A stretch of 64,000 nt of DNA from Patescibacteria group bacterium (GCA_041670805.1 JBAXYM010000002.1:1309-65308); one strand, 5' to 3'. Numbered from the stretch's first letter, positions 7,161-63,131 are shown. Notes: generated from the letters alone by a model not told the origin. Made by a program: numbers and translations.

Positions 7161-7238
7161 GGATCACATCAGAAATGATGTGAACAACGCAGGACAAAAC
7201 GTTTTCGCGCAGCATTCACACCATTTCTGGTGTGATCC
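7161..7238. repeat. Family-A palindromic element, copy 1.
   Basis: GGATCACATCAGAAATGATGTGAA...TTCACACCATTTCTGGTGTGATCC, a near-perfect 24-nt inverted-repeat pair around a ~30-nt AACGTT-centred core. Confidence 0.9.
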
Positions 7239-7388
7239 AAATACAAAATTGGTATTTGTTACAAAAACATGTTAATTGTACATAGGGAATCCTTACAGGA
7301 CAAAAGGAATAAATCAGTGCGGGAATTATAAAAAAATTATTTTATATAATCCAAACGCGTAAATCCCGATACGATAGATCCGCCCAAT

Positions 7389-8948
7389 CTATTTCTCTAT
7401 CAAACTTCCCAAGACCATCGCCTTGGGCTTCGGAACGTTCAACACGTCCAGGAGCGTTGGAGCGACATTTCCCAAGACTCCGTTTTTATTAAGCCTGCAA
7501 TTTTTCTTCGTCAGACCCTTTTTCACAATGATAAAAGGCACCGGATTTTTGCTGTGCATTGTGGAAATATTTCCCGTCTCGGGATCCAGCATCTCGTCCG
7601 CATTGCCGTGATCGGCGGTAATAATCGCCGCGCCGCCGCTTGCCAAAACTTCGCTCACTACTTTTTCCAAACACTTGTCCAGAAATTCCACCGCGCAGAT
7701 GGTGGCTTTCAAGTTCCCCGTGTGCCCCACCATATCGGCATTGGCATAATTGACCAATATAAAATCATATATGCTGTGTTCAATATTGGAGACGATAACA
7801 TCCGTAATGTCTCCCGCGGACATTTCCGGTTTTTGGTCGTAAGTAAATACGTTTTTGGAGATAATTCTCTCGCGATTCTCCGAAGCGATCGGCTCGCTGT
7901 GCCCGCCATTGATGAAATAAGTTACGTGCGGATATTTTTCCGCTTCGGCGATATAGAGCTGTTTGAATTTTTGCAATACTTTAGGCAAAGTATCCTCCAC
8001 CGCCTGCGAGGCGTAAGCTATCTGCACCGGCAAATCCTGCCCGAAATCAGTCAACGTACACATAAAAACATTGTGCAGAATATGCTTGCGATTCTCGTAG
8101 TCTCGCATCTCCGGCGCGATCAGCATCTTGGTCATCTGACGCGCGCGATCCCCGCGTAAATTAAAAAATATCACCGCATCGTTGTCCTTGATCGTAGCGA
8201 CCGGTCTTCCTTCTTTGTCTACGATAGTGGTCGGAATTATAAACTCGTCAGTGAGTCCGTGGTTGTATGCGTCCTTTATCACCTGCTCGGCGGAATTTCC
8301 TCTGGCGCCTTCGCCCAAAACCATGGCGTCATAAGCGCGCTGCAGTCTGTCCCAATGTTTGACTCGATCCATCGCATAATATCTCCCGCCGATGCTCGCA
8401 ACTTTTCCAACTCCGATTTCTTTGATTTTGTCATTAAGTGCCCGCAAAAACACCAAAGAACTCTTCTCAAAAGCATCGCGACCGTCGGTGAAAAGATGAA
8501 GATAAATTTCCTTGACCCCGCTGTCTTTCGCCATCCGCATCAGAGCAAAGAGATGTTCGGGATCGCTGTGGGGACTGTCCGAATCCGACAAAAGCCCCAT
8601 CATATGCAAATCGGTCTTTTGCGTGAGTGCATGATTGATAGTCCGGCGAATACGCGGATTTTCGAAAAATTTTCCCGACTGGATATCCTCGTTTATGATT
8701 TGCGAATCTTGTTTGATAATTCTGCCCGCTCCGATATTGACATGCCCGGCCTCGCTCCCACTCCGTTCGTTCTCGCTCAATCCGACCGCCAACCCGGTGG
8801 CGTTGAGCTGTGTGTAAGGATATTTGGCGACCAGACTGTCGAAAAAGGGCTTCTTGGCAAGCTCAATTGCATTGCCTTCCGATTTGGGAGCCACCCCCCA
8901 GCCGTCCAGGATAATCAGCATATTTGTAGGTTTTTTCAATTCGGTCAT
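7389..8948 (-). CDS. gpmI: 2,3-bisphosphoglycerate-independent phosphoglycerate mutase (iPGM), copy 1.
   Basis: 519 aa with LIILDGWG at the N-terminus, the catalytic-Ser motif SGSEAGHVNIGAGR, and a C-terminal metal-binding domain (ADHGN). Confidence 0.9.
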   Translation of the reverse strand: MTELKKPTNMLIILDGWGVAPKSEGNAIELAKKPFFDSLVAKYPYTQLNATGLAVGLSENERSGSEAGHVNIGAGRIIKQDSQIINEDIQSGKFFENPRIRRTINHALTQKTDLHMMGLLSDSDSPHSDPEHLFALMRMAKDSGVKEIYLHLFTDGRDAFEKSSLVFLRALNDKIKEIGVGKVASIGGRYYAMDRVKHWDRLQRAYDAMVLGEGARGNSAEQVIKDAYNHGLTDEFIIPTTIVDKEGRPVATIKDNDAVIFFNLRGDRARQMTKMLIAPEMRDYENRKHILHNVFMCTLTDFGQDLPVQIAYASQAVEDTLPKVLQKFKQLYIAEAEKYPHVTYFINGGHSEPIASENRERIISKNVFTYDQKPEMSAGDITDVIVSNIEHSIYDFILVNYANADMVGHTGNLKATICAVEFLDKCLEKVVSEVLASGGAAIITADHGNADEMLDPETGNISTMHSKNPVPFIIVKKGLTKKNCRLNKNGVLGNVAPTLLDVLNVPKPKAMVLGSLIEK

Positions 8949-9080
8949 AATTTTTTATTTTTATCTTAATCAAATTTTTATCTTATATTGATGCATTATA
9001 CTAAATCACTTTCAAATTTTGTACAATATGGAAATCTGCACTAAGCTCTACAGGGATTGTCTTCGAAGAATTTTGCATTC

Positions 9081-9159
9081 GGATCACACCGGAAATGGTG
9101 TGAAATGCTGCACGAGAACGTTTTGTCCTGCGTTGTTCACACCATTTCTGGTGTGATCC
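9081..9159. repeat. Family-A palindromic element, copy 2 (core inverted relative to copy 1).
   Basis: Same arms, flanked by the outer stem TTTTGCATTC|...|G.AAAT. Confidence 0.9.
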
Positions 9160-9183
9160 GTAAATTCAGAATACATTATTTTT

Positions 9184-9321
9184 TGTCATCTCGAAGGAGT
9201 ACTCGACTGAGAGATCTGGGAAATGCACGAAGCTGTGCCGATGTTATTTTCACAGTAAGATTATATTTGCATAGTATTGTTCCCGGATTTCTCAATCGGA
9301 GTACCTCATTTCGAAATGACA
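9184..9321. mobile_element. Family-C MITE (about 140 bp, imperfect ~40-bp TIRs).
   Basis: TGTCATCTCGAAGGAGTACTCGACTGAGAGATCTGGGAA ... TTCCCGGATTTCTCAATCGGAGTACCTCATTTCGAAATGACA. Confidence 0.8.
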
Positions 9322-9351
9322 GATATTGATTGTTTCTTTTAACAGGAGTGC

Positions 9352-9385
9352 CTTCTCGCAACGACAGGCTAAACGCGTAAGTCCT
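9352..9385. repeat. Short repeat CTTCTCGCAACGACAGGCTAAACGCGTAAGTCC adjacent to a family-C MITE. An inverted copy lies at the window end.
   Basis: Matches the reverse complement of 63961-64000 (CTTCTCGCAACGACAATCTAAACGCGTAAGTCCCAGAATC). Confidence 0.6.
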
Positions 9386-9387
9386 AA

Positions 9388-10653
9388 TTATAATTCTCTC
9401 TCAATCTCCATCAATCTGTTATATTTCGCCAGTCTCTCTCCGCGCGACAGCGAGCCGGATTTGATAAAATCCGCGCCTGAGGCTACCGCCAAATCGGCGA
9501 TAAAATCATCGCAAGTTTCTCCGCTGCGATGCGAGACGATTATTTTCCATCCCGAAGCCTGCGCCTTTTTAATGCACTCCGCCGTTTCCGTCAAACTTCC
9601 GATCTGATTTAATTTTATGATAATGGCATTGGCGGCATTTTTCTTCGCAGCCGCCTCAACTCTGGCAGGATTAGTTACAGTAAGATCGTCAGCCACAATG
9701 ATAAAATCTTTTTTAACCGCCGACAGTCTCTTTTTCATCTCTTTCCACCCGGAAAGATCATTCTCATTCAAACCGTCCTCAATGGAAAGAATCGGATATT
9801 TACCAATCCATTCCGAATAAAGCGCAATCAGCCGATTGGCGTCGAGGCAAGCATTGCCGGGATTGATAACATACTGATTCTCTTTGGGGAAATAGAAAGA
9901 ACTTGAAGCCGCATCCAGCGAAATAAAAACGTCCTTTCCCGCTTCGTACCCGGCCTGTTCGACGGCTTTCAGAATCGATTCAATCCCCTGCTCGATACTG
10001 TCCAATTTCGGCGCAAAACCGCCTTCATCCCCCACGCCCGTTGCGTATCCGCCGCCGGCAAGGATTTTTTTAAAACTGTGGAAAATCTCGCTCCCTGCGC
10101 GAATCCGATCTTTGCCGCTGGCAATCCCAAGCGGCACAATCATAAATTCCTGAATGGAAAGTCCGCTGTCGGCGTGCTTGCCGCCATTGAGAATATTAAA
10201 CATAGGCACCGGCAAACGAAACTTGTCCGCAAAGCCGTAAGTCTTGGCGAGATATTTGTAAAGCGGCTTGCCCTGCGAGGTCGCCGCGGCGCGAGCACAC
10301 GCCAAAGAAACACCCAGAATCGCATTCGCCCCCAGATTTGACTTGTTTTCCGTTCCGTCCAATTTGAGCATCAGCGCATCGATTTTTTGCTGCGATGTTA
10401 CGTTTTGTCCCGCCAGAATCGGAGCGATTTTCTTGTTCACATTCTCACAGGCCTGCAAAACACCGTTGCCGCCGTAGCGTTTTTCGTTACCATCGCGAAG
10501 TTCAAGAGCCTCAAACTCGCCCGTAGATGCGCCGGAAGCCACCGACGCTCTTGCCTTGACTTTGTTGTCCAGAGTTACCTCCACCTCCACTGTAGGATTG
10601 CCACGCGAATCAAGAATTTCCCGGGCAATTATTTTGGTTATTTTTACAGGCAT
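9388..10653 (-). CDS. eno: Enolase.
   Basis: 421 aa with the canonical enolase N-terminus (ITKIIAREILDSRGNPTVEVEV) and SHRSGETED-like motif (SHRSGETCD). Confidence 0.95.
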   Translation of the reverse strand: MPVKITKIIAREILDSRGNPTVEVEVTLDNKVKARASVASGASTGEFEALELRDGNEKRYGGNGVLQACENVNKKIAPILAGQNVTSQQKIDALMLKLDGTENKSNLGANAILGVSLACARAAATSQGKPLYKYLAKTYGFADKFRLPVPMFNILNGGKHADSGLSIQEFMIVPLGIASGKDRIRAGSEIFHSFKKILAGGGYATGVGDEGGFAPKLDSIEQGIESILKAVEQAGYEAGKDVFISLDAASSSFYFPKENQYVINPGNACLDANRLIALYSEWIGKYPILSIEDGLNENDLSGWKEMKKRLSAVKKDFIIVADDLTVTNPARVEAAAKKNAANAIIIKLNQIGSLTETAECIKKAQASGWKIIVSHRSGETCDDFIADLAVASGADFIKSGSLSRGERLAKYNRLMEIEREL

Positions 10654-10772
10654 ATATTTTAGCTATGATTGAAATTGATTAACAAAAAGAGTATTTTGGG
10701 ACCATGCGCGATATTATGACTCTCCGAACAGACAATCCCAACATATCTGTTGTATTTTGAATTGTAGATTAT

Positions 10773-10853
10773 GGATCTCATGGCAGAAATGGTGTGAACA
10801 ACGCAGGACAAAACGTTCTTGCATAATATTTCACACCATCTCTGGTGTGATCC
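10773..10853. repeat. Family-A element, copy 3, with a degenerate left arm and the conserved ~70-nt right extension (to about 10925).
   Basis: Right arm TTTCACACCATCTCTGGTGTGATCC, then GGATATAAAGCTGGATTT...CCATAAAACCATATATATG. Confidence 0.8.
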
Positions 10854-10931
10854 GGATATAAAGCTGGATTTATGAATGTTGGATTTTTAATATCTGCCAT
10901 AAAACCATATATATGACTATTTTGTTATAAA

Positions 10932-12089
10932 TCAGTTCAGTGCCTCAATTCCCGGAAGTTTTTTGCCCGAGAGGAACTCCAACATCGCGCCGCCGCCGGT
11001 GGAAACATGCGTCATCTTATCAAGATAGCCGAAATTGGCAAGTGCCAAAATCGTATCGCCGCCGCCGATTATCGTCTCAGCCGAAGATTCCGCCATCACC
11101 TTTGCTATTTCCCGAGTGCCTCGCGCGTACGCCTCTTCTTCAAAAAGCCCGACCGAACCGTTCCAAACGACAGTAGCGGAATTTTTTATAATCTCCGCGT
11201 ACTCCGCCAAACTTTTTTCGCCTATATCCAATATACGGAAATCCCCCACTTTTTCTGTCGCCAAATCAACATCTCTCTTGTCGGGATTGTCCGTCACTAC
11301 GTCAACGGGAATATAAATCTTGGGATTTTTCAGATCAATTTTCTTTGCCTCGTTGATATCCAAATCGTCCTTGACCGATTTTCCGATATCAACACCGTCG
11401 GCTTCCAGCAAAAAATTCGCAATCACGCCGCCAATCAAAATATTATCGAATTTATCAATAAGAAAATTGATAACCGGAAGCTTGGTCTCCGCTTTGAGTC
11501 CGCCCATAATGATCGTGGCCGGACGAGCGGGATTTTCTATGACTTTTGAAAGCACGCCGATCTCTTTTTCCAGTCCCAGCCCCGCATAAGCCGGCAAAAG
11601 ATGGGCAATCGCCTCCACGGAAGCATGCGCGCGATGTGCCGCGGAAAAGGCTTCATTGACATAAATATCGCCGAGAGCCGCCAGCTTTTTGGCAAACTCC
11701 ATATCATTTGCCTCCTCTTCGCTGTGAAAACGCAGATTTTCCAAAAGCACAATCTCGCCTTCCTGCATATCTTCCACGGCTTCCTCCGCCAATTCGCCCA
11801 CGCAATCGGGAGTCTTGATTACCGACAATTCCAGCATTTCAGAAAGCCGATCCTGCACCGGGCCCAAGCGAAATTTTTCGACTACCTGCCCGTCCGGTCT
11901 GCCCAAATGTGACATCAGAATTATTCTGGCATCATTTTCCAAAAGAAATTTGATAGTCGGCAGCGCAGCCGTGATGCGCCATGCCTCGTTCTCGTCCACT
12001 ACGCCGTCGTCCCCGAGCGGCACGTTGAAATCCACCCGCACCAAAACTCTTTTGCCCTTCAAATCTCCGGCTTCTTTTATGCTTTTCAT
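10932..12089 (-). CDS. pgk: Phosphoglycerate kinase.
   Basis: 385 aa with RVDFNVP, IILMSHLGRP and GGGD/GGGA motifs. Confidence 0.95.
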   Translation of the reverse strand: MKSIKEAGDLKGKRVLVRVDFNVPLGDDGVVDENEAWRITAALPTIKFLLENDARIILMSHLGRPDGQVVEKFRLGPVQDRLSEMLELSVIKTPDCVGELAEEAVEDMQEGEIVLLENLRFHSEEEANDMEFAKKLAALGDIYVNEAFSAAHRAHASVEAIAHLLPAYAGLGLEKEIGVLSKVIENPARPATIIMGGLKAETKLPVINFLIDKFDNILIGGVIANFLLEADGVDIGKSVKDDLDINEAKKIDLKNPKIYIPVDVVTDNPDKRDVDLATEKVGDFRILDIGEKSLAEYAEIIKNSATVVWNGSVGLFEEEAYARGTREIAKVMAESSAETIIGGGDTILALANFGYLDKMTHVSTGGGAMLEFLSGKKLPGIEALN

Positions 12090-12098
12090 AAGAAATTA

Positions 12099-12440
12099 TT
12101 ATTTAAAGAAATTATTACTTGCGTCGATAAATTCGATAAGATTGCCATCGATATCCCTGATAAAATTTTGTAATTTATCTTCCGAGAAATCAAAAACTTC
12201 CACACCTTTTTCTTTCAGTTTCTCAAGATACAGAGGAAGGTCATCTATTTCTACCGCAAAATGATAGAAAGTGCCGGGCACCGGCTCGCCTGAATTCTCG
12301 GTGATATGGAGATATTGGTCTCCTATTTTTATCCAGAGGTAATCATTCGATTCTTTCTTTTCAAAACCGAGAACTTCAGTATAAAATCTTTCGGACTCCC
12401 TTCTATCTTTGACGAGCAAAGTCACGTGATTTATTTTCAT
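12099..12440 (-). CDS. VOC (vicinal oxygen chelate)/glyoxalase-bleomycin resistance family protein.
   Basis: 113 aa with the INHVTLLVKD...FYTEVLGF pattern typical of glyoxalase I-like proteins. Confidence 0.65.
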   Translation of the reverse strand: MKINHVTLLVKDRRESERFYTEVLGFEKKESNDYLWIKIGDQYLHITENSGEPVPGTFYHFAVEIDDLPLYLEKLKEKGVEVFDFSEDKLQNFIRDIDGNLIEFIDASNNFFK

Positions 12441-12491
12441 AGCGTTTCTATTTTACCTAAAGCGATATAATTTTCTGCCATCCTAATGTAT

Positions 12492-13124: not shown

Positions 13125-13157
13125 AGTTTTATTATTTACAGTTGAATTTTAAATTGT

Positions 13158-13219
13158 GGATCAACAACGCGGGACAGAACGTTATTGTGTAATACCTCAC
13201 ACCATTTCCGGCGTGGTCC
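13158..13219. repeat. Family-A element, copy 4 (left arm truncated).
   Basis: GGATCA|ACAACGCGGGACAGAACGTT...CTCACACCATTTCCGGCGTGGTCC. Confidence 0.7.
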
Positions 13220-14787: not shown

Positions 14788-15031
14788 CCTTTATTCTAAA
14801 TTTTATTATACTCCATTTTTTTCAAAAAACCTAGAGGGAGTCTGCCTGACCCACCCACGCTTTGAGTCGCTTTTTTTAGCCAAATCAAAAGGTAAGATTA
14901 ATCTTTATCTGTCATTTATCTGTCATTCCGAAATTTCGGTACCCCGAAATATCCGGAATCCCGCAACTATACAAGGCAAGTATTGTGTTTCATTTTTATG
15001 AAAGCATTTTGCATTATGGATTCTAGATTTC

Positions 15032-15110
15032 GGATCACACCAGAAATGGCGTGAACCATGCAGGACAAAACGTTCTTGCGCAATATACCGCACCATTTCT
15101 GGTGTGGTCC
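15032..15110. repeat. Family-A element, copy 5 (nested in the family-B composite).
   Basis: Full arms. Confidence 0.9.
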
Positions 15111-15150
15111 GGATGCAAAAAGGCATTTTGGATTCTGGATTTCGGATTTC

Positions 15151-15230
15151 GGATCACACCAGAGATAGTGTGAACCACGCGGGATAAAACCGTTCTTGCG
15201 TAGCATTTCACACCATTTCTGGTGTGGTCC
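15151..15230. repeat. Family-A element, copy 6 (tandem with copy 5 inside the same family-B element).
   Basis: Full arms. Confidence 0.9.
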
Positions 15231-16588: not shown

Positions 16589-16667
16589 GGATCACACCAG
16601 AAATGGCGTGAACTACTGCACAAGAACGTTCTGTCCTGCGTTGTTCACACCATTTCTGGTGTGATCC
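16589..16667. repeat. Family-A element, copy 7.
   Basis: Full arms with TTTTGCATTC|...|GAAAAATGCA outer stem. Confidence 0.9.
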
Positions 16668-17557: not shown

Positions 17558-17654
17558 TGCGTTGATTTTATGATTTACACCTTAAAAAGTGAAACGATAA
17601 GAATATTTTTCAGTGCTCTGCATTTTGCATTCTGCATTCTGCATTCCGCATTCG

Positions 17655-17733
17655 GGACCACACCAGAGATGGTGTGAACCACGCAGTACAGAACGTTCTT
17701 GCGCAGCATTCCACACCGTTTCCGGTGCGATCC
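17655..17733. repeat. Family-A element, copy 8.
   Basis: GGACCACACCAGAGATGGTGTGAA...CCACACCGTTTCCGGTGCGATCC. Confidence 0.85.
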
Positions 17734-19021: not shown

Positions 19022-19075
19022 ATTTTCTGAATTTAGATTGGATTAAATTGATCCTGTTATATTTTTGAACTATGG

Positions 19076-19155
19076 ATTCACGCCAGAAATGGCATGAAAT
19101 GCTACAAAAGAACGTTTTACCCTGCATTGTTCACACCATCTCTGGTGTGATCCGA
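19076..19155. repeat. Family-A element, copy 9.
   Basis: GGATTCACGCCAGAAATGGCATGAA...TTCACACCATCTCTGGTGTGATCC. Confidence 0.85.
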
Positions 19156-20270: not shown

Positions 20271-20391
20271 TGTCATTCCGGAATTTCGGTATCCTGAAAT
20301 ATCCGGAATCCCTGTGTTGTATGACTGAACAGACGTTACATATCTTCGTAAAGGGATCCCGGATATCCCCCTCCGGGGATTCCGGGATAAC
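20271..20391. repeat. Family-B core fragment (hairpin pair) between trxB and the ferredoxin gene.
   Basis: TGTCATTCCGGAATTTCGGTATCCTGAAATATCCGGAATCCC...GGATCCCGGATATCCCCCTCCGGGGATTCCGGGATAACAC. Confidence 0.65.
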
Positions 20392-22325: not shown

Positions 22326-22404
22326 CGGATCACACCAGAGATAGTGTGGAATGCTACATAAAAACGTTTTGTCCTGCGTTGTTCACATCATTTCTGATGT
22401 GATC
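22326..22404. repeat. Family-A element, copy 10.
   Basis: Full arms (right arm is the CTGATGTGATCC variant). Confidence 0.9.
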
Positions 22405-22414
22405 CAAACCCTTT

Positions 22415-23683: not shown

Positions 23684-23762
23684 GGATCACACCAAAAATG
23701 GTGTGAACGATGCAGGACAAAACGTTTTTTGCGTAGCATTCACACCATTTCTGGTGTGATCC
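23684..23762. repeat. Family-A element, copy 11 (adjacent to a family-B fragment).
   Basis: Full arms. Confidence 0.9.
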
Positions 23763-29361: not shown

Positions 29362-29500
29362 TGTCATTCCGGAATTTCGTTTCGTCGAAATATCCGGAAT
29401 CCCCGTGCCATACAAGACCAATCCTCGACTTGTTGTCTCTCGCCACCGACTTTGTCATCCCGAAAGGCGTACTCGCTTGATAAATCCGAGAAATATGCAA
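29362..29500. repeat. Family-B hairpin fragment plus a family-C-like TIR fragment, upstream of the pilin/T4CP operon.
   Basis: TGTCATTCCGGAATTTCGTTTCGTCGAAATATCCGGAATCCCCG, then TTTGTCATCCCGAAAGGCGTACTCGCTTGATAAATCCGAGAAATATGC. Confidence 0.55.
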
Positions 29501-29578: not shown

Positions 29579-29810
29579 GCGGGAGCAGGTTTAAACCTGC
29601 TCCCTATGATTTTATTTCAAGACCGGCGATGTTTGTTTCTAACTGCCCATGCTGCTTTGTTACGATTAAATCAATAATAAAACATTCCGAAGCTTAAAAC
29701 CCTATGGAGCGGGTAAATACCCGCTCCCGCAAATACGGACACAAAAAAACAGCGGACCCGAAAATCCGCTATTTTTATCCTATACGCGGGAGCAGGTTTG
29801 AACCTGCTCC
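29579..29810. repeat. Cluster of three short family-G perfect-palindrome hairpins (GCGGGAGCAGGTTTAAACCTGCTCCC and variants).
   Basis: 29579-29604 GCGGGAGCAGGTTTAAACCTGCTCCC; 29706-29727 GGAGCGGGTAAATACCCGCTCC; 29786-29810 GCGGGAGCAGGTTTGAACCTGCTCC. Spacings of about 127 and 80 nt. Confidence 0.8.
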
Positions 29811-29897
29811 TTAATAAACACCTTCAAACTTTCACTTGAAGGCTTTTCCAAAACCGCAAAGGTTTGTGGGCTTGAAAAAAGTTAAGAAAAGAGTATT

Positions 29898-30570: not shown

Positions 30571-30679
30571 CGGAGTAGCATGGCTTTAGCCTGCGCTGCT
30601 ATCCAATGCGGACAGAGCAAACGTATGCGATGCATCTCTTGGCTTGGGACAACCGCGCAGGCTAAAGTCATGCTACTCC
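30571..30679. repeat. Family-D GC-rich palindromic element, copy 1 (in the atp leader).
   Basis: GGAGTAGCATGGCTTTAGCCTGCGC...(variable ~45 nt)...GCGCAGGCTAAAGTCATGCTACTCC, with an inner stem TCCAATGCG/...TTGGGACA. Confidence 0.85.
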
Positions 30680-31984: not shown

Positions 31985-32095
31985 CGTCCCGGAATTTGCG
32001 CAGCAAATATCCGGGATCCCCGACATGTAAGATAAAACTTTATTGGCTTAGTAGCGGGATTCCGGATATTTCGCAGTAGCGAAATTCCGGAATGA
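31985..32095. repeat. Family-B hairpin pair inside the atpE-atpF spacer.
   Basis: TGTCGTCCCGGAATTTGCGCAGCAAATATCCGGGATCCCC...GGGATTCCGGATATTTCGCAGTAGCGAAATTCCGGAATGACA. Confidence 0.7.
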
Positions 32096-32152
32096 CACCT
32101 TTTTTGTCGCTGATTCGGAATATAAAAATTAATAATTTAAAAGATAAAGACT

Positions 32153-39020: not shown

Positions 39021-39099
39021 GGACCACACCAGAAATGGTGTGAACTGCTGCATAAAAACGTCCTGTCCTGCGTTGTTCACACCATTTCCGGTGTGGTCC
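39021..39099. repeat. Family-A element, copy 12.
   Basis: GGACCACACCAGAAATGGTGTGAA...TTCACACCATTTCCGGTGTGGTCC. Confidence 0.9.
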
Positions 39100-39192: not shown

Positions 39193-39393
39193 TTACTTTT
39201 TCTTTGCAGCGACTTTCTTTTTTGCAGCCGGTTTCTTAGCAGCAACCTTCTTCACGGTCTTCTTCACGGCTTTCTTGACTGCAGGCTTCTTAGCAGCTAC
39301 CTTTTTCTTCGGAGCGGCTTTCTTTACAACTTTCTTGGCAGCTACTTTCTTCTTCGGAGCAGCTTTCTTGACTGTTGTCTTTTTTGTTACCAT
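39193..39393 (-). CDS. Histone H1-like lysine/alanine-rich DNA-binding protein.
   Basis: 66 aa made of AAKK/KKAA/PKKK repeats (Hc1/AlgP/BpH1-like composition). Confidence 0.55.
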   Translation of the reverse strand: MVTKKTTVKKAAPKKKVAAKKVVKKAAPKKKVAAKKPAVKKAVKKTVKKVAAKKPAAKKKVAAKKK

Positions 39394-39600: not shown

Positions 39601-39679
39601 GGATCACACCAGAGATGGTGTGAACAACGCAGGCCGGAATATTCTTGTATGGCAGTTCGCATTATTTCTGATGTGATCC
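39601..39679. repeat. Family-A element, copy 13, with right extension to about 39765.
   Basis: Full arms, followed by GAATGCAAAGCTGGATTTCTGATT...GCTATAAAAACATATAT. Confidence 0.9.
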
Positions 39680-39952
39680 GAATGCAAAGCTGGATTTCTG
39701 ATTTCTAATTAATACGAATTTTGGTGTTTGCTATAAAAACATATATTGCGTATGAGTCCAAAGAATATCGAACGCGATCAACTTTAAAAACATATTACCA
39801 AAATAAATTCCGCGCCGCGAAAATGTTTGGTTCTCTCATTTTTGGCTAAAACTTGCCATTTCTTGCCATTATGATAAACTCTAATCAAGAGAAAATACGA
39901 TTTTTTAGATATCTAAAATCATAAATTTTAAAAGGAAAGGAGGTGTTTTAAA

Positions 39953-40748: not shown

Positions 40749-40826
40749 GGATCACACCAGAGATGGTGTGAATGCCACATAAAAACGTTCTATCCTGCAT
40801 GGTTCACACCATTTCTGGTGTGATCC
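40749..40826. repeat. Family-A element, copy 14.
   Basis: Full arms. Confidence 0.9.
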
Positions 40827-40891: not shown

Positions 40892-41146
40892 CGGAGTAGC
40901 AGGTGGAGTAGCATGGCTTCAGCCTGCGCCGCTGTCCAATGCAAAAAAGAACAAACGCATATACGTTCGTTCCATCAGCTTGGAACAACCGCGCAGGCTA
41001 AAGCCATGCTACTCCGAGAATTATTCCGTTTTAACATAAACAAAAGACGCGATAAATCGCGTCTCTACAAAGATACGGAAGGTTATTCCCGCATTGGACA
41101 GCAGCGCAGGCTGAAGCCTGCTACTCCGTTTGTCATGCTACTCCAC
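40892..41146. repeat. Family-D element, copy 2 (one full unit plus a partial second unit).
   Basis: GGAGTAGCAGGTGGAGTAGCATGGCTTCAGCCTGCGCC...CGCGCAGGCTAAAGCCATGCTACTCC, then ...GCATTGGACAGCAGCGCAGGCTGAAGCCTGCTACTCC. Confidence 0.85.
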
Positions 41147-48118: not shown

Positions 48119-48286
48119 GCGGAGCACGCAACCCGCGCGAAGTAGCATGGCGGAGTGGCAGGTGGAGTAGCGGGTGGAGTAGCATGGCTTTAGCCTGCGC
48201 GGTTGTCCCAAGTCGCAAAAACTTTCATATACATTCGTTCTCTCCGTATTGGACAGCGGCGCAGGCTAAAGCCGTGCTACTCCGCG
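48119..48286. repeat. Family-D element, copy 4 (left arm reiterated).
   Basis: AGTAGCATGGCGGAGTGGCAGGTGGAGTAGCGGGTGGAGTAGCATGGCTTTAGCCTGCGCGGTTGTCCCAAG...GGACAGCGGCGCAGGCTAAAGCCGTGCTACTCC. Confidence 0.85.
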
Positions 48287-49086
48287 GATGGTTTATTCAA
48301 TAAAACTTTATAAAAAATAAACAGCGGAATGCCGCAAAGCAGCACCCATTGCGTCAAGGTCAAACCGTAAAAACGCGCATCGCAAAAAGTCAAGTCGTCG
48401 CATCGCAAAAAGTCGGCGCCAAAACGAAAAATCGCATATGACGCGATAAAAGCCAAAAAAATATGTCCGTCGCGTTTCCGTTTTGATTTCAATTCGTATA
48501 TCACGCCCGATAAAAATATCAGAAACAATATTTCGTACGAAGCAACCGGATGTCGCAGCGTGCCGTCTGCAAATTCCATTCCCCACGGCAGCGTCGTGAT
48601 TTTGCCGATATGATCACCAATCAAAAAACAACCGAGGCGCACGAAAATGAGCGCGACGACAAAACCGGGGGTCAAAATATCAAACACTTTTTTAAAATCC
48701 CGCTTTTTGTTTTTCAAATAAAGCAGGCTCAAAACTCCGGTCAGCGCCACACCGCCCGCGAGCGAAAAACCGCCATGCACGCCGGTCAAAACGGCGACGC
48801 TTTTTTCCGGACTTGAAAGAAAATAAAAAATACGCCCGCCCACAATCATTCCCGCCAATGAAATAATCATCACGTCCCAGACTGTTTCATCCGCAAGGCG
48901 GGCCTTGCGCGCTTCCTTCAAAGAAATCGCAAGTGCCGCAACAAAACCGAGGGCGACAAAAAGCCCCCATACTTGCAAGGTGAGCGCGCCCAGGTTTATT
49001 TCAGTAAAAGAAAAATACGAAAGCATTTTTATAAAAACAACGGATAACGCGGAGTAGCATGGCTTTAGCCTGCGCGGTTGTCCCAA
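48277..49086 (-). CDS. lgt: Prolipoprotein diacylglyceryl transferase.
   Basis: RLGCFLIGDHIGKITTLPWGMEF matches the Lgt signature (RxGNFxNGELxG...LPWG). The first ~20 codons of the ORF overlap a family-D repeat; the true start is probably MLSYFSF at about 49026. Confidence 0.7.
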   Translation of the reverse strand: MGQPRRLKPCYSALSVVFIKMLSYFSFTEINLGALTLQVWGLFVALGFVAALAISLKEARKARLADETVWDVMIISLAGMIVGGRIFYFLSSPEKSVAVLTGVHGGFSLAGGVALTGVLSLLYLKNKKRDFKKVFDILTPGFVVALIFVRLGCFLIGDHIGKITTLPWGMEFADGTLRHPVASYEILFLIFLSGVIYELKSKRKRDGHIFLAFIASYAIFRFGADFLRCDDLTFCDARFYGLTLTQWVLLCGIPLFIFYKVLLNKPSAE

Positions 49087-49170
49087 GCAAAGAAAACGAT
49101 TGAATATGTTTGTTCTTCCCGCATTGGACAGCGGCGCAGGCTGAAGCCTGCTACTCCGCCATGCTACTCC
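49050..49170. repeat. Family-D element, copy 5 (overlaps the ORF-track N-terminus of lgt).
   Basis: GGAGTAGCATGGCTTTAGCCTGCGCGGTTGTCCCAAGC...GCATTGGACAGCGGCGCAGGCTGAAGCCTGCTACTCC. Confidence 0.85.
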
Positions 49171-52776: not shown

Positions 52777-52839
52777 CGGACAAAACTTTATATAAGGTTG
52801 TATTAATTATAGTAACCGGAGCTAGCTCATTCTTTTCGC

Positions 52840-52983
52840 GAGAACAGGTTTAAACCTGTTATCAATAGTTCTGTTTCAAAATAAAATAATATGATTGGGC
52901 AAAAAGATATCCGGCACTTTTTATCCGTTCAACATTTTTCTTCTTGAAATCAAACCCCGGAGAGCAGGTTTAAACCTGCTCCC
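52840..52983. repeat. Pair of family-G hairpins between tig and ppaC, with a related copy at 51181-51203.
   Basis: GAGAACAGGTTTAAACCTGTT and GGAGAGCAGGTTTAAACCTGCTCCC; also GGAGCGGGTATTCACCCGCTCC at 51181. Confidence 0.75.
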
Positions 52984-53001
52984 GCAGCCTATGTCTATAC
53001 G

Positions 53002-55744: not shown

Positions 55745-56170
55745 CACTTGAACTTTGAATCACTTTTTTTGCCGAATTGAAAGGTAAAAAACAATCTTTT
55801 TTGTCATTCCGGAATTTCGGTACTCCGAAATATCCGGAATCCCGTAGCTATGCAAGGCAAGTATTGTATTTCATTTATATGAGAGTATCTTGCATTATGC
55901 ATTATGGACCACACCAGAAATGGTGTGAACCACGCGGGACAAAACGTTCTTGCATAATATTTCACACCATTTCTGGTGTGGTCCAAATGCAAAGCTGGAT
56001 CTCTGATTGATACAGATTTTGATGTCTGTTATAAAACCATATATTTGCGCATAACCCATTTTTATCGGCTTGGTAACGGGATCCCGGATATTTGCTACGC
56101 AAATTCCGGGATAACATCTCTTTAGAAAGCTATAGATAAGCGTCGGGAAGTGCAGGTGAAGTAGAATATG
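55745..56170. mobile_element. Family-B composite element with a nested extended family-A element (the best-preserved full copy).
   Basis: Left TIR CTTGACCCACTTGAACTTTGAA, both internal hairpins present, and a right end CTTTAGAAAGCTATAGATAAGCGTCGGGAAGTGCAGGTGAA. Confidence 0.75.
55906..55984. repeat. Family-A element, copy 15 (nested in a family-B element, with left and right extensions about 55882-56064).
   Basis: Full arms. The insertion is bounded by CATTTATA|...|TCGGCTTGG, whereas the A-less family-B copy at about 5180 reads CATTTTTAC|CGGCTTGG. Confidence 0.9.
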
Positions 56171-57936: not shown

Positions 57937-58064
57937 AGAATGAAGTTCATTAACAGTTTATTTTATTAAAATTGCACCGCAGAAACAAGCGAAGTGACTT
58001 TCCTTTGCTTTTGCTCAAAAATATATTATCATTAAATACAGTTAAAGGCTAATTTCAAAAGGAA

Positions 58065-59429
58065 ATGAAAGAAGATACGAATTACGATGCAATTGTCGCG
58101 GGAGCCGGCATCAGCGGACTCTTGACCGCTCTGGCGCTCAGCAAGGAAGGCAAGAGAGTTTTGGTCATAGAAAAAAGCGACGTGCTGGGGGGAAACTGCC
58201 GCACCTATGAAGTCGACGGCTATCATATCGATACCGGACCGCACGCCATTACCGGGCTGGACGACGGACCTCTGCAAATTTTGATGGACAAATACTTCGA
58301 CAGGCAGCCGAAGTTTGTGCCGATTGGCAATTACTATGTCCGCGACGGAAAGGATTTCCAAGAGATACCGTTTACAGTCGTACAATTGGCAAATTTCAGT
58401 ATACTTTCCAAAATCGACCGCATGCGTTTCCTTGCGATATTGATTGACGGCATCGCATCCTCGTCAAATTCGATTACAAAACACAGATTGCAGACAAATG
58501 TGTATGATTTTATAAAAAGCTACGGTTTTTCAACCAAGGCATTGCATTATATGGATGCTCTCGCCTATTTCCTGAGCGGCAAGTCCATGCAAGAAACCCC
58601 TGCATGGAGAATGCTCGGCGGATACGGCGGTCTCGACGAAAAAAAAGGGCAATCGATTAAAAGCAAAAGGCCCGCGGAAAGAATCAAGAAATTTTTTGTA
58701 AATGATTTTAAAACTCACGGTTATCCCATGGGAGGCCTTCAAGCGATCACGGATGCGCTTCTCGAGTCTATGCCGAAAGACAAGGTCGCTTTTCGAAAAA
58801 ACGAAGAGGTCAAAGAAATCATCACCGATCGGGGCCGCGTCACGGGGGTCAAAACCGATAAAGGCAGCTACGCTTCCGACCTCGTCATTTATTCCGGATT
58901 TACAAAAGACCTGCCCAAAATTGTAAAAGGTCTGGAAAATTCCTACAAAGCGAATTTGGATAAAATAGAACAGTCTCACAGTATGGTTTTGTGGCTTGGG
59001 CTTAAAGAAAAAATGCCGGAATTCTCTTACGTCGGCTCGGAGGTGTATTTCAATACGAACACACCCTACTGGGCAATCCCGATTACCAACTATGATCCCG
59101 GTATGGCTCCGAAAGGCAAACAGCTGATCGGTTTTATGGCGGCATTCATAGAGGACAGCGAACAAAAACAATTGCAAAAACTTCGTGGCGTAATTTACAA
59201 GGCCATCCCCGAGATAAAATCCAAAATAGAATTCGAGCACGTCCAAGTGACCATTCCTGAAAAAGCCGCTATCACTGTCAACGGAAGATTTCCTTCACCC
59301 AAATCTCCCATCGACGGACTTTACCTGGTAGGTACCGACACCGACACCCGTTCCATGGGCGTGACCCGCGCCTCTTACTCGGTCTCGGAAGCGCTAAAAT
59401 TTATGAGAGAAGACGGCGTTTTGAAATAA
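58065..59429 (+). CDS. FAD/NAD(P)-dependent oxidoreductase, phytoene-desaturase/amine-oxidase-like family.
   Basis: YDAIVAGAGISGLLTALALSKEGKRVLVIEKSDVLGGN dinucleotide-binding fold. Confidence 0.6.
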   Translation: MKEDTNYDAIVAGAGISGLLTALALSKEGKRVLVIEKSDVLGGNCRTYEVDGYHIDTGPHAITGLDDGPLQILMDKYFDRQPKFVPIGNYYVRDGKDFQEIPFTVVQLANFSILSKIDRMRFLAILIDGIASSSNSITKHRLQTNVYDFIKSYGFSTKALHYMDALAYFLSGKSMQETPAWRMLGGYGGLDEKKGQSIKSKRPAERIKKFFVNDFKTHGYPMGGLQAITDALLESMPKDKVAFRKNEEVKEIITDRGRVTGVKTDKGSYASDLVIYSGFTKDLPKIVKGLENSYKANLDKIEQSHSMVLWLGLKEKMPEFSYVGSEVYFNTNTPYWAIPITNYDPGMAPKGKQLIGFMAAFIEDSEQKQLQKLRGVIYKAIPEIKSKIEFEHVQVTIPEKAAITVNGRFPSPKSPIDGLYLVGTDTDTRSMGVTRASYSVSEALKFMREDGVLK

Positions 59430-59440
59430 AATGTTTATCA

Positions 59441-59469
59441 AAAAAACAGACACAGGTTCTGTTTTTTTG
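59441..59469. terminator. Bidirectional terminator hairpin between the convergent genes.
   Basis: AAAAAACAGA-cacaggt-TCTGTTTTTT. Confidence 0.45.
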
Positions 59470-59487
59470 TTTACCCGAGCAGCATTC

Positions 59488-59563
59488 GGACCACACCAGA
59501 AATGGTGTGAAATGCCGGATGGAACGTTCTTGTGCGGCATTCACACCATTTCTGGTGTGGTCC
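59488..59563. repeat. Family-A element, copy 16.
   Basis: Full arms. Confidence 0.9.
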
Positions 59564-59570
59564 GAAATCA

Positions 59571-60119
59571 TTACTCGAACATCTCTTTCAATTCCAAAAA
59601 CCTCCCAAACGACTCCTCTCCGTATCCCCTGAATTCCTCCTCAATCGTTTCCAGAGTGTCTTTCTTCCCCGGTGTTTTGCTGCTGAATTTATCGGCGTAG
59701 CAAATAATCTTTTCCTCCAAAGAAACCGGCAGAAAATCTTCGTGCGGCAAATTCCAACCATTGGCGATAATATCCTCTTTGGCAAGCCCCGAACCGGTAT
59801 GCCGTTTGGCGATAAACGATTCTTTTTCCAAACCTTCTCTTGCCAAAATCTCCGCGCCGATAATGCCGTGTCGAATATAGTTTTTCAGATCGGGCACGCC
59901 CCTCTTTTGAAAATCCTCGTCCGCGAAAAATTCCAGTGCGCCGATGTCGTGCAAAATAGATCCGGAAATTATCAGATCAAAATCTACCTTGTCGTACAGC
60001 TTTTTTCGATTCACGATTTCTATGCTTTTTGCGAGCACCTCCAGACTGTGGCGAAGCACGATCTCAAAGGCCTTCTCCGAGGTCGAATATTTTTTCAAAA
60101 TTTCAAAATTTTTATTCAT
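59571..60119 (-). CDS. HD-domain (HDIG) phosphohydrolase.
   Basis: H...HD motif (ILHDIGALE) with downstream His and Asp residues. Confidence 0.65.
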   Translation of the reverse strand: MNKNFEILKKYSTSEKAFEIVLRHSLEVLAKSIEIVNRKKLYDKVDFDLIISGSILHDIGALEFFADEDFQKRGVPDLKNYIRHGIIGAEILAREGLEKESFIAKRHTGSGLAKEDIIANGWNLPHEDFLPVSLEEKIICYADKFSSKTPGKKDTLETIEEEFRGYGEESFGRFLELKEMFE

Positions 60120-60142
60120 AAATTGTTTATAACCGGCTTAAA

Positions 60143-60151
60143 TGATATAAT
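60143..60151 (+). promoter_or_regulatory. Extended -10 promoter element (TGaTATAAT) upstream of the second gpmI.
   Basis: TGATATAAT about 40 nt upstream of the ATG. Confidence 0.4.
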
Positions 60152-60189
60152 CATATTAGCAATTTAAGCTCTAAGTGTAAATAATCAAA

Positions 60190-61758
60190 ATGCAAAAAGT
60201 AATTCTCGTCATATTGGACGGCTGGGGCATAAGCAGGGAGGTGGCGGGAAACGCCATCAGGAACGCCCGAACTCCCAATATGGATATGCTGATGTCGTAT
60301 TTTCCCAATACCGTTTTGCAGGCCTCGGGAATCTCCGTCGGGCTGCCTTGGGGCACGATGGGAAATTCCGAAGTCGGACACCTCACTATCGGCAGCGGAA
60401 AAGTGGTGTATCAGAGCCTGCCACGCGTGACCATTTCCATTCAAGACGGCTCTTTTTTCGAGAAAGAGGCGTTGCTGCAAAGTATAAAACACGCCCAAGA
60501 AAACAATTCCTGCATTCACCTCCTCGGACTGTTGAGCGCGGGCAGCGTCCACAGCCACATCAACCACCTTTACGCGCTCTTAAAGCTCTTGAAGATGAAA
60601 AATTTTCCCGCCGAAAAAGTGCTGATACACGTTTTTACTGACGGCAGAGATGTCGACCTTCACTCGGGAATAGATTACATCGCCGAGCTGGAAAAAAATA
60701 TCAAGACGGAGGGCTTCCCGGGAAGGATCGCCAGTGTGATGGGAAGATATTACGCGATGGATCGCAATGAGAATTGGGACCGAACGGCGAAGGCTTACGC
60801 TTGCATGGCAAAGGGCGAGGGTAAACAGGCGGATACGGCGCGCGCGGCGATACTGGAATCTTACGATCGAGAAAAAAGCGACGAATTCGTCGAACCGGTA
60901 ATCATCAAAGACGCAACGGGAAAAGTCAGCACTGTCGGATACGGAGACTCGGTTATACTTTTCAATATCCGCGAAGACCGCGCCCGGCAAATCACCAAAG
61001 CGTTTGTCCTTGACGATTTCAATCATTTTGCAAGGGGAGAAAAAATAGAGGGACTGAATTTTACCACAATGATAGAATATGAAAAAGATTTGCCCGTAAA
61101 TGTGGTTTTTCCTCCCGAGAAAGTAGAAGCGCCTCTGGGCAAAATGTTAAGCGTAGCGGGAGTAAAACAACTCCGAATTGCGGAAACGGAAAAATATGCC
61201 CACGTCACTTACTTCTTCAACGGCGGCGAAGAGAAGCCTTACCCCGGAGAATTTCGAATGCTCGTCCCTTCTCCCAATGTCGAAAGCTACGACCAGACGC
61301 CTCGAATGAGCGCCGAAGAAGTAACCAATAATGTCATCGGGGCGATAGAAGGAAAAGAATACGGTTTTATTTTGGTAAATTTCGCCAACCCCGATATGGT
61401 CGGGCACACGGGAAATATCAAAGCGGCAATAGAAGCGATAGAATTTGTGGATGGATGCGTCGGAAGTATTTATAAGAAAGCCGCAGAAAATGATACAGTG
61501 CTAATTGTAACCGCCGATCACGGCAACGCGGAGGAAATGATCAACACCCGCACCGGCGAAATACTCACCGAACACACCACCAATCCCGTACCTTTCATTT
61601 TGGCAGACCCCCGCCGTCGATTTGAATATCCGCAAAAGCTCGGGCAGAGCAAAGACATAAACGGAATATTGAGTGACATCGCCCCCACGATTTTGGATAT
61701 TATGGAAATCCCCGAACCGAAAGATATGACGGGAACGAGTTTGTTGAGAAGTATGTAA
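60190..61758 (+). CDS. gpmI: 2,3-bisphosphoglycerate-independent phosphoglycerate mutase (iPGM), copy 2 (divergent paralog).
   Basis: VILVILDGWG, GNSEVGHLTIGSGK catalytic Ser, HVFTDGRD, ADHGN. Confidence 0.85.
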   Translation: MQKVILVILDGWGISREVAGNAIRNARTPNMDMLMSYFPNTVLQASGISVGLPWGTMGNSEVGHLTIGSGKVVYQSLPRVTISIQDGSFFEKEALLQSIKHAQENNSCIHLLGLLSAGSVHSHINHLYALLKLLKMKNFPAEKVLIHVFTDGRDVDLHSGIDYIAELEKNIKTEGFPGRIASVMGRYYAMDRNENWDRTAKAYACMAKGEGKQADTARAAILESYDREKSDEFVEPVIIKDATGKVSTVGYGDSVILFNIREDRARQITKAFVLDDFNHFARGEKIEGLNFTTMIEYEKDLPVNVVFPPEKVEAPLGKMLSVAGVKQLRIAETEKYAHVTYFFNGGEEKPYPGEFRMLVPSPNVESYDQTPRMSAEEVTNNVIGAIEGKEYGFILVNFANPDMVGHTGNIKAAIEAIEFVDGCVGSIYKKAAENDTVLIVTADHGNAEEMINTRTGEILTEHTTNPVPFILADPRRRFEYPQKLGQSKDINGILSDIAPTILDIMEIPEPKDMTGTSLLRSM

Positions 61759-61809
61759 AACTTTCCCAGTGTTTTGAATTATGGAAGATATGGCATCCGT
61801 TCCCTTACA

Positions 61810-62040
61810 TGTCCCGGAATTTGCGCAACAGAAAGCCAGCATTTGCATCCGGACCACACCAGAAATGGTGTGAAATATTACGCAAGAACGTTTTGTCCTG
61901 CGTGGTTCACACCATTTCTGATGTGGTCCATAAATCCATAATGCAAAATACACTCGTAAAAATGAAATACAACACTTGTCTTGCACGGCTACGGGATTCC
62001 GGATATTTCGGAGTACCGAAATTCCGGAATGACAGATAAT
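61810..62040. repeat. Family-B half-elements flanking A copy 17.
   Basis: Left ATGTCCCGGAATTTGCGCAACAGAAAG; right GGGATTCCGGATATTTCGGAGTACCGAAATTCCGGAATGACAGATAAT. Confidence 0.65.
61851..61929. repeat. Family-A element, copy 17 (nested between family-B half-elements).
   Basis: Full arms. Confidence 0.9.
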
Positions 62041-62129
62041 TGATTTTATTTTTTAATTTGGCTAAAAGCAGCGATTCAAAATGCAGATGGGTCAGGGATT
62101 TTTCGACAAAAAAATAACCGCCAGTCCGG

Positions 62130-62819
62130 TTATTTTTTTGCTTCTTTATCGCGCCAGTCCTTAATTTTCCGATGGTGTCCGCTTAAGAGTATCTCGGGCA
62201 CTTCCCATTTGACTCCCCGCTTGGGAGAAAAAACTTCCGGCTTGGTGAACTGCGGATACTCCAAATATCCCTCACTGGAAAAAGATTCCTCCACGATTGA
62301 CTCCTCGTTGCCCAAAACCCCGGGCAGAAGTCGCACAACCGAATCCACAACCGCCATCGCCGGAATTTCCCCGCCGGTCAAAACATAATCGCCGATAGAA
62401 ACTTCTTCATCCACCAGATATTTTGCCACGCGCTCATCCACGCCTTCATATCTGCCGCAAATGAGGACGACTCTTTCAAGCTTGGCATAATCCCGTGCTT
62501 TTGCCTGAACATATCGTTCCCCTTTGGCGGAGAAAAGCACTATCTTGGTTTTTGATTTTTTGCTTTTTCGCCAACATGGCAAATTATTTTTCCCCACAAC
62601 AGAAACCAGCGCTTTGTAAATCGGCTCCAACTTGAGCACCATCCCCGCGCCGCCGCCATAAGGAGTATCATCCACGGTCAAATGTTTGTCCTCCGTAAAA
62701 TCGCGCAAATTATGCACCACGACTTCGACAGCCCCCTGCTTTTGCGCGCGCGCGACAATACTCTCGCCAAAATACGAATCAAAGATTTCCGGAAAGATGG
62801 TTATGATATCGAAACGCAT
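62130..62819 (-). CDS. trmD: tRNA (guanine37-N1)-methyltransferase.
   Basis: [12 protein letters not shown]-terminus and a SPOUT-knot C-terminal region ([20 protein letters not shown]). Confidence 0.9.
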
Positions 62820-63052
62820 AAAAATAATTGATAATTAATAATTGAAAACCTGTAACTGATCGCCCACCCCGAAAGACACTGCCAAAAAGATTCCGTCCCG
62901 CATCAGAACTCCGGATTCGCCATGCGAAGTTTATCGGTCCATATATGCAAGCGGTAACATAATCCCAACCGTATGTATCCAATCAAAACCCACATATCCG
63001 AAACAAGGTCATATGCAATATATTGTATTACAACAAACACCGACTTTGCATT

Positions 63053-63131
63053 CGGACCACACCAGAAATGGTGTGAAATACTGCGCAAGAACGTCTTATC
63101 CTGCGTGGTTCACACCATTTCTGGTGCGATC
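63053..63131. repeat. Family-A element, copy 18.
   Basis: Full arms with TTTGCATTC|...|CATAATTCAAAATAC flanks. Confidence 0.9.

Follow-up and report, generated by a model that had tools for sequence, protein, structure and literature searches.

The window analysed here is a stretch of 64,000 nucleotides from a Patescibacteria group bacterium (GCA_041670805.1, JBAXYM010000002.1:1309-65308), and its intergenic DNA carries many copies of a short inverted repeat which we call Family A. Gene calls were taken from contig k141_939646 (154,793 nt) of the ENA assembly ERZ27249489, where the window corresponds to ~88.9-152.9 kb in reverse. The ATP synthase beta subunit encoded in the window is identical to a protein of an NCBI Patescibacteria group metagenome-assembled genome (MAG), and its relatives belong to Pacebacteria, Paceibacterota and Parcubacteria MAGs. 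The host is an uncultured, streamlined and probably episymbiotic member of the Patescibacteria of the Paceibacteria/Parcubacteria type. As the first-pass annotation had stated, all copies of the repeat are intergenic: each of the 18 lies between called genes, 11 of them in tandem, 5 in convergent and 2 in divergent spacers, and both orientations occur. In a co-directional run of glycolytic genes at 5-24 kb, nearly every spacer has one copy. An array of minus-strand genes contains 7 '+' and 3 '-' copies within a single direction of transcription.

The 24-nt arm of the repeat, GGATCACACCAGAAATGGTGTGAA, has 29 matches in the window at up to three mismatches and 34 at up to five, with none at three or fewer in 100 dinucleotide-preserving shuffles. 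From these arms, 17 full elements and a single half element can be built (Table 1), the full ones measuring 76-81 nt and in most cases 79 nt. A covariance model trained on 128 distinct copies returned exactly these 18 loci from the window and nothing else below E = 0.1, and the copies originally listed are thus confirmed by both searches. The right-hand extension of ~60-70 nt that had been seen at three of them (10773, 39601 and 55906) is equally real. Sequence that had not been chosen for carrying the repeat amounts to 94.6 kb, made up of the window, the adjoining 9.9 kb and 20.7 kb from a further contig of the same assembly, and it holds 23 full copies. The impression of a dense family is therefore genuine, at about one copy per 4 kb, which would extrapolate to ~240 copies in a genome assumed to measure ~1 Mb.

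Table 1. Family A elements and associated modules in the window (window coordinates).
Feature	Position	Strand	Basis
Family A, full, 78 nt	7161..7238	+	arm search, covariance model 97.7 bits
Family A, full, 79 nt	9081..9159	-	arm search, covariance model 104.2 bits
Family A, full, 81 nt, 2-nt insertion in left arm	10773..10853	+	covariance model 85.2 bits
Right-hand extension module, GRATRYAAAGCTGGATTT...ATAAAACCATATAT	10854..10915	+	repeat comparison
Family A half element, core and right arm, left arm missing	13158..13219	+	covariance model 57.3 bits
Family A, full, tandem pair no. 1	15032..15110	+	arm search, covariance model
Conserved linker of tandem pair, 40 nt, GGATGCAAAAAGGCATTTTGGATTCTGGATTTCGGATTTC	15111..15150	+	119-120 nt spacing
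Family A, full, tandem pair no. 2	15151..15230	+	arm search, covariance model
Family A, full	16589..16667	-	arm search, covariance model
Family A, full, preceded by TGCATTC x4 (17624-17654)	17655..17733	+	covariance model
Family A, full, one degenerate arm	19075..19153	-	arm search, covariance model
Family A, full	22327..22405	-	arm search, covariance model
Family A, full	23684..23762	+	arm search, covariance model
Family A, full	39021..39099	-	arm search, covariance model
Family A, full, degenerate right arm	39601..39679	+	arm search, covariance model
Right-hand extension module	39680..39749	+	repeat comparison
Family A, full, 78 nt	40749..40826	-	arm search, covariance model
Family A, full	55906..55984	+	covariance model 106 bits
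Right-hand extension module	55985..56047	+	repeat comparison
Family A, full, 76 nt, shortened near-symmetric core	59488..59563	+	covariance model 82 vs 70 bits
Family A, full, between two hairpins of another repeat module	61851..61929	-	covariance model
Family A, full, orthologues in strains L048 and L100	63054..63132	-	covariance model
Single GTAG-tagged palindrome GTAGAGACGCGATTTATCGCGTCT, of the family flanking a transposase gene (RAYT) on another contig	41045..41068	-	

Sequence divergence among the copies is larger than was first thought. Pairwise identity of the 17 full copies averages 83% (range 72-96%), not the few percent of divergence given initially. The recent spread that had been read from it agrees neither with ~17% divergence nor with the presence of orthologous copies in strains that are ~5% and ~11% diverged. 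Divergence of this size also bears on the quality of the assembly. The window comes from a short-read metagenome assembly, and a collapsed or chimeric repeat would be one way to obtain such a family. However, the same copies with their flanks were recovered in independent JGI, ENA and NCBI whole-genome shotgun (WGS) assemblies, and the copies differ from one another in sequence and in flanks and occupy unique gene contexts. We therefore treat an artefact of assembly or binning, against which a check had been advised, as excluded for practical purposes.

Anatomy and structural constraint

The left arm of Family A consists of a 4-nt GGAY head, read as GGAT or GGAC in over 90% of the arms, followed by a 7-bp stem, CACACCA/TGGTGTG, with a 4-nt loop. 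Structure prediction folds a single arm into a small hairpin by itself, in agreement with the initial description. The two arms are separated by a directional spacer of 31 nt with the consensus CCACGCAGGACAGAACGTTCTTGCGTAGCAT (the core), after which the left-arm sequence returns inverted. It was first proposed that the whole unit is a near-perfect palindrome able to form a perfect hairpin of ~45 bp. The core speaks against this, since cores placed in one orientation show 2-14 differences from the consensus and those placed in the other show 18-25, and the covariance model scores ~100 bits on one strand and ~60 on the other. At 59488-59563 the orientation is only weakly defined because the core is shortened and nearly symmetric. 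The predicted fold of the whole doublet is still a long hairpin (-49 to -67 kcal/mol, z -7.7 to -15.9), consisting of a 24-bp stem that closes a 31-nt loop with some structure of its own.

The flanks of the element are directional as well. In the frame given by the core, runs of the heptamer GGATTTY lie to the left of the unit, and GAATRCAAAG follows the right arm and is found on that side only. An outer stem, TTTGCATTC/GAATGCAAA, had been thought to extend most copies, but it was rejected since the flanks do not pair in individual copies. Complementarity of at least 7 out of 9 bases is seen in 1% of 183 copies, the window copies reach 0-5 out of 9, and the own flanks of a copy are less complementary to each other than flanks re-paired at random. 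In tandem pairs, the GAATRCAAAG tail and the GGATTTY heptamers together make up a conserved 40-nt linker that sets a period of 119-120 nt, and the same linker separates tandem copies at loci L009 and L016. Runs of heptamers directly 5' of left arms are also visible in the window, with TGCATTC repeated four times at 17624-17654 and GGATTYC three times at 15130-15150. GGATTTC resembles the arm start GGATCAC, and slippage or repeated joining at that end may be a cause of these runs.

Which of the predicted helices is under constraint can be judged from covariation in an alignment of 128 distinct copies, although these copies share descent and the cells counted are therefore not independent events. 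Within the arms (columns 5-11/16-22 and 58-64/69-75), 96.8% of the cells are paired. Compensated cells number 54, compared with 11.0 +/- 2.8 in shuffles, none out of 500 of which reaches 54, and the covariation score is 0.147 vs 0.099. Columns 8-19 hold an A-U pair in 99 copies and a G-C pair in 24, while columns 9-18 are C-G in 101 copies and U-A in 17. The right arm has independently undergone the same two kinds of exchange, one of them in 3 copies and the other in 6, and at least four separate compensated swaps are visible. For the 24-bp helix between the arms, the 10 compensated cells compare with 24.6 +/- 12.3 in shuffles, 471 of 500 being equal to or above the observed number, and a change in one arm leaves a G-U pair or a mismatch against the opposite arm. 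As compensation takes place within the arms and is not mirrored in the other arm, the constrained unit is a pair of small stem-loops similar to repetitive extragenic palindromes (REPs). Each arm behaves as an independent REP-like stem-loop, and covariation gives no support to the long inter-arm hairpin, which had been suggested as the functional form.

Several other classes of element were considered and set aside. The ends of Family A, GGAYC.../...GRTCC, are not the R''/R' motifs (RYYYAAC ... GTTRRRY) of an integron attC site, there is no integrase, and the neighbours are syntenic housekeeping genes, with copies in convergent and divergent spacers too. A CRISPR array, a riboswitch and a small RNA were each rejected on anatomy, the mixed orientation of the copies and the lack of partner genes. 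A recombination site for a tyrosine recombinase of the Xer type came to mind from the 7-6-7 layout of the arm, and nothing was found to support it. The absence of a match to Rfam, also part of the first-pass annotation, holds: the window has 0 matches at gathering thresholds, and E-value mode returned just sub-threshold noise from hairpins of the miRNA type (at most 20.8 bits, with cut-offs of 56-100).

Copying, distribution and persistence

Family A has multiplied by copying, and its sub-families are recognised by linked changes that recur at many loci. The G8-C19 variant is present at 23 distinct loci and is linked to the loop base G14 (19/23 vs 12/94; Fisher P = 2e-10). A haplotype of three characters at no fewer than 19 (~20) unrelated loci implies copying from variant source elements. 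In 714 kb of related contigs there are 398 arms, 356 of which stand in inverted doublets. These doublets number 178, with lengths of 75-91 nt, and 125 of them measure exactly 79 nt. Good arms without a partner were found 13 times, several of them cut by contig ends or part of hybrids. After clustering by flanks, the metagenome contigs of this lineage yield at least 124 distinct Family A loci in addition to those of the window.

Family A is specific to this lineage. An exact 20-mer of the arm has 0 matches in 185,579 GTDB species, represented by one genome each, and it was not found in IMG/VR viral contigs or, by blastn, in plasmids. It does occur in more than 102 contig stretches of JGI metagenomes, almost all of which come from the samples Ga0172377, Ga0172378 and Ga0172381. 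Two syntenic relatives, L106 and L107 (AtpD 93% and 91% identical), have 0 copies by pattern or covariance model. On the other hand, the sites shared with strains that are 97%, 94.6% and ~89% identical are filled by Family A in every case. Absence from the former and retention in the latter point to an expansion within one clade followed by persistence. It had been proposed that empty sites in close relatives would define the ends of the element and any target-site duplication. No base-precise empty site could be defined in L106 or L107, where the intergenic DNA is just 72-83% identical, and a search for joined flanks among the strains, covering 192 copies, gave matches that all lie between other repeat modules.

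Two inverted 24-nt arms enclosing a short multi-copy element that is non-coding and uniform in length, specific to one lineage and divided into sub-families, are also what one would expect of a classical MITE (miniature inverted-repeat transposable element), that is, a deletion derivative of an insertion sequence (IS) with 24-bp terminal inverted repeats and a DDE transposase. The Correia elements of Neisseria share with Family A their small size, inverted terminal arms, intergenic position and high copy number. Both they and the other MITEs derived from insertion sequences duplicate their target sites. For Family A, in contrast, no duplication was found in 183 copies at offsets of 0-15 and lengths of 2-8 when compared with shuffled pairs. 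Inverted arm pairs more than 91 nt apart are absent from the 714 kb, and thus no coding element bounded by the arms was seen. Within the limited sample of the window and the next 10 kb no transposase was called, and the hypothetical proteins adjoining copies have no transposase or recombinase domains. Moreover, the compensatory changes keep a hairpin within each arm, which a DDE enzyme that binds double-stranded DNA would not need, and the arms vary independently of each other. Taken together, we consider an origin as a MITE improbable.

The persistence of orthologous copies in diverged strains raises another possibility, namely that Family A is primarily a cis-element of the host. Its arm hairpins would then be selected binding or processing sites in intergenic spacers, for example for protection of mRNA 3' ends, RNase processing in operons, or sites for proteins of the nucleoid or recombinase type, and copying would account for the origin only. 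The nearly regular presence of one copy per spacer in the glycolytic run agrees with such a role, as does the compensatory change that keeps the hairpin. In L100, a strain ~11% diverged (88% identity over the aligned stretch), each arm has 1 difference compared with 8/31 in the core. For E. coli it is established that REPs influence the stability of mRNA and are bound by integration host factor (IHF) and gyrase (PMC2817692, in part). Yet the element is wholly missing from relatives in which the gene order is the same, and therefore these genes do not need Family A. Both orientations are found within one transcription direction, as in the minus-strand array described above, and copies are placed in divergent spacers where 3' ends do not exist. 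There is no T-run 3' of the hairpin, which means that it is not a canonical intrinsic terminator; in scans for promoters and terminators nothing coincided consistently with the copies, and terminator-like sites were no commoner than in shuffles. Nor are the arms clearly more conserved than the flanks when differences in orthologous pairs are counted (13/192 vs 170/2239), a comparison of four usable pairs that has no power. A function for the host is possible as a secondary role, but it is difficult to defend as the main explanation, and we think it unlikely to be one.

Kinship with REP doublets and a RAYT gene

The first-pass annotation recognised no named family in the repeat. Its architecture nevertheless places it with REP doublets that form hairpins (REPINs) and with bacterial interspersed mosaic elements (BIMEs) (PMC3116915; PMC3733652; PMC2817692, in part). 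REPINs were described from Pseudomonas fluorescens and others (Bertels and Rainey, 2011; PMC3116915). Like them, Family A is made of two short palindromic REP-like units inverted around a spacer, and its 79 nt are close to the 71-nt register of the GI family of P. fluorescens (PMC3116915). In further likeness, doublets are far commoner than singlets and are exclusively extragenic, near-identical units form tandem clusters, the sub-families are quasispecies-like, copies are kept vertically at orthologous sites, and the genome has a single-copy gene for a REP-associated tyrosine transposase (RAYT). The differences are equally clear. This RAYT is flanked by another REP instead of Family A arms, the spacer of Family A is well conserved and directional, and compensatory changes are confined to the arms whereas in P. 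fluorescens they extend across the long hairpin (PMC3116915). The host is also unexpected, as Patescibacteria are unrepresented in the REPIN literature searched, and full-text searches found no paper linking REP, REPIN or RAYT with Patescibacteria.

REP families with GTAG or CGTC tags are stem-loops of 20-40 nt which form head-to-head dimers around conserved spacers of 20-100 nt (Di Nocera et al., 2013; PMC3733652). The same work describes dimers that combine arms of two families, CGTC families lacking a dedicated flanking transposase, and untagged REP-like families (PMC3733652). Family A resembles these in its dimers, its 31-nt spacer and its hybrids with the GGAGTAGC... family. It departs from them in its head, GGAY, which is neither GTAG nor CGTC, and in having a spacer common to the GTAG doublets that adjoin the RAYT, a relationship we have not found described. 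For the BIMEs of Enterobacteria, alternating REPs are joined by two alternating conserved linkers (PMC2817692, in part), to which the 31-nt core and the 40-nt linker correspond at 15032-15230 in the window and at L009 and L016. Family A is likewise mixed with other modules into intergenic mosaics of the kind reported for BIMEs (PMC2817692, in part). There is no sequence relationship between the two, and binding of IHF, gyrase or Pol I is known for BIMEs.

One RAYT gene, at L056:3123-3812, was identified when all open reading frames (ORFs) of the fetched loci were searched with E. coli RayT; L113:10001-10693, from contig k141_1375650 of the ENA assembly that supplied the gene calls, has the same sequence. 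We assign the gene as a predicted REP-associated tyrosine transposase of the HUH type on the basis of PNHIHG as its HUH motif, RIREYICNNP as its tyrosine motif, a score of 23.9 bits against Pfam Y1_Tnp (cut-off 23), and thousands of homologues at E ~1e-55 to 1e-64, several of which are named "REP element-mobilizing transposase RayT" by JGI. Its contig bears Family A copies too, the nearest at ~1 and 2.6 kb from the gene. With a profile of 118 homologues, no second RAYT or remnant of one was found in ~0.9 Mb of partly redundant sequence.

On both sides the RAYT is flanked, and in frame it is interrupted, by a 28-nt palindrome, GTAGAGACGCGATTTATCGCGTCTCTAC, with a classical GTAG head. It is the spacers of these flanking doublets that connect them to Family A, since they are homologous to its core in the same register (for example GAACGCAGGATTTAACGTTTTGATGCGATAA). 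With a profile of the core, 4 of the 6 RAYT-flanking spacers score higher than each of 124,020 background positions, or than each with a single exception, and the covariance model also detects the RAYT-flanking spacer in L115. In other phyla, where this GTAG REP also forms doublets, the spacers are unrelated, from which it follows that the core-like spacer is a local feature. A second connection comes from hybrid doublets in five fetched stretches, where a Family A arm and the core are followed by an arm of the GTAG-tagged GGAGTAGC... family. Judged by this spacer homology and by the hybrids, Family A is linked by evolution to this genome's REP/RAYT system.

Two features of the RAYT and its palindrome deserve mention in their own right. 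The insert in the RAYT ORF is in frame, covers ~55 codons (residues ~95-150) and contains copies of the GTAG REP of this gene with core-like spacers; L115 encodes a RAYT homologue of 85% identity in which there is a comparable insert. Exact matches to a 24-mer of GTAGAGACGCGATTTATCGCGTCTCTAC come from over 118 stretches of genomes that represent GTDB species (loci L116-L233), usually with 1-2 of them per 8-kb stretch. Its hosts include Nostoc and other Cyanobacteria, Bacteroidota, Omnitrophota, Cloacimonadota, Chlorobiota, Methylococcaceae and several groups of the candidate phyla radiation (CPR), a striking conservation across phyla for a non-coding hairpin.

We consider it reasonably probable that Family A is a family of REP doublets restricted to one lineage, REPIN-like in general and BIME-like where it stands in tandem, and that it is moved by an enzyme of the RAYT type. 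As such it belongs to a known kind of element, and its new points are that it lives in Patescibacteria, that it is so dense in a small genome, that its head is GGAY and that its spacer is held in common with the GTAG doublets of the RAYT. Copies would travel as single-stranded hairpin DNA on which a HUH tyrosine transposase of the RAYT type may act in trans, by analogy with the proposal made for REPINs. The mobilising enzyme could be the RAYT found here or one encoded outside the sampled sequence. Most copies would be selfish or neutral passengers of intergenic DNA, and effects on mRNA stability or DNA-binding proteins would be secondary, if there are any.

A number of observations weigh against this assignment. 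The only RAYT found is flanked by another REP (GTAGAGACGCGATTTATCGCGTCT/GTAGAGACGCGATTTATCGCGTCTCTAC) and not by Family A arms; by the criterion of flanking, Family A is therefore not the cognate REP of this RAYT, and the arms carry neither of the tags (GTAG or CGTC) of the classified REP super-families. Since no RAYT flanked by Family A arms was found in the sequence available, we file Family A as an element of the REP/REPIN kind and not as a demonstrated REPIN-RAYT system. In addition, GTAGAGACGCGATTTATCGCGTCTCTAC is a low-copy sequence common to many phyla, and RAYT groups other than 2 and 3 are without large REPIN populations (PMC5581495), which together call for caution in taking this RAYT as the driver of Family A. 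Finally, the shared sites of the three strains show no presence/absence polymorphism and no excision product; all of them are filled, and they give no sign of current mobility.

The shared spacer invites a more specific account of the origin of Family A. A GTAG doublet flanking the RAYT might have kept its spacer, gained untagged hairpin arms and then expanded, giving an arm-swapped REPIN. We regard this scenario as speculative and rather unlikely. If it were true, either the RAYT of a widely distributed clade would mobilise a quite different hairpin or an enzyme not yet known would do so, and a streamlined bacterium would tolerate these hairpins or use them as punctuation between its genes.

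Returning to Family A as a family of REP doublets, its interest lies partly in the host. REP and REPIN populations have been studied almost wholly in Proteobacteria, and the genomes of Patescibacteria are seen as small and stripped down. The present lineage carries Family A at the density given above, at least four other families of hairpin repeats and a RAYT, and streamlining is thus compatible with a rich intragenomic population of repeats. With a syntenic relative that has no copies, a spacer shared with the doublets of the RAYT next to arms that are not shared, and hybrid doublets, it offers a natural experiment that could help explain the origin of new REP families and what RAYTs recognise. 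On the practical side, short-read assemblies of CPR genomes are broken up by repeats of this sort, which also give rise to false calls of small ORFs. An example is probably seen in public gene calls at L234:7434-7586, where a 50-aa 'gene' runs across a copy of Family A that has its arms at 7454 and 7508.

Other repeat modules and neighbouring genes

Another family of doublets, found in the window at 30572-30679, 40905-41015, 48176-48283 and 49051-49158, is built from GTAG-tagged arms (GGAGTAGCATGGCTTTAGCCTGCGC ... inverted) that enclose ~35-40 nt of spacer. Hybrid doublets made of this family and Family A halves occur in L011, L025, L028, L036 and L090, and the family is the older of the two because it is also found in L106, the relative that lacks Family A. 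A composite module consists of two different hairpins, ATCCCGGAATTTGCGCAGCAAATATCCGGGAT and GGGATTCCGGATATTTCGGAGTACCGAAATTCCGGAATGACA, and lies at 5121-5250, 14921-14962, 20271-20312 and 29362-29403, with further sites at 31986-32097, 55802-55843, 56057-56116 and 61993-62034. In some composite modules Family A stands between both hairpins in place of ~50 nt of the usual middle, which makes the intergenic DNA a mosaic of modules. Short G+C-rich hairpins, GCGGGAGCAGGTTTAAACCTGCTCCC, occur in intergenic DNA at 29579-29606, 29786-29813, 52838-52863 and 52958-52985 and may be terminator-like.

Among the genes of the window, a Lys/Ala-rich ORF of 66 aa at 39193-39393 (-) has a Family A copy on either side. 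Its product weakly resembles HC2, a nucleoprotein of the histone H1-like kind (Pfam PF07382, E 0.004, under the cut-off), and could be a small nucleoid protein. The window also contains two paralogous genes for cofactor-independent phosphoglycerate mutase, at 7389-8948 (-) and 60190-61758 (+), which encode proteins of 519 and 522 aa, respectively.

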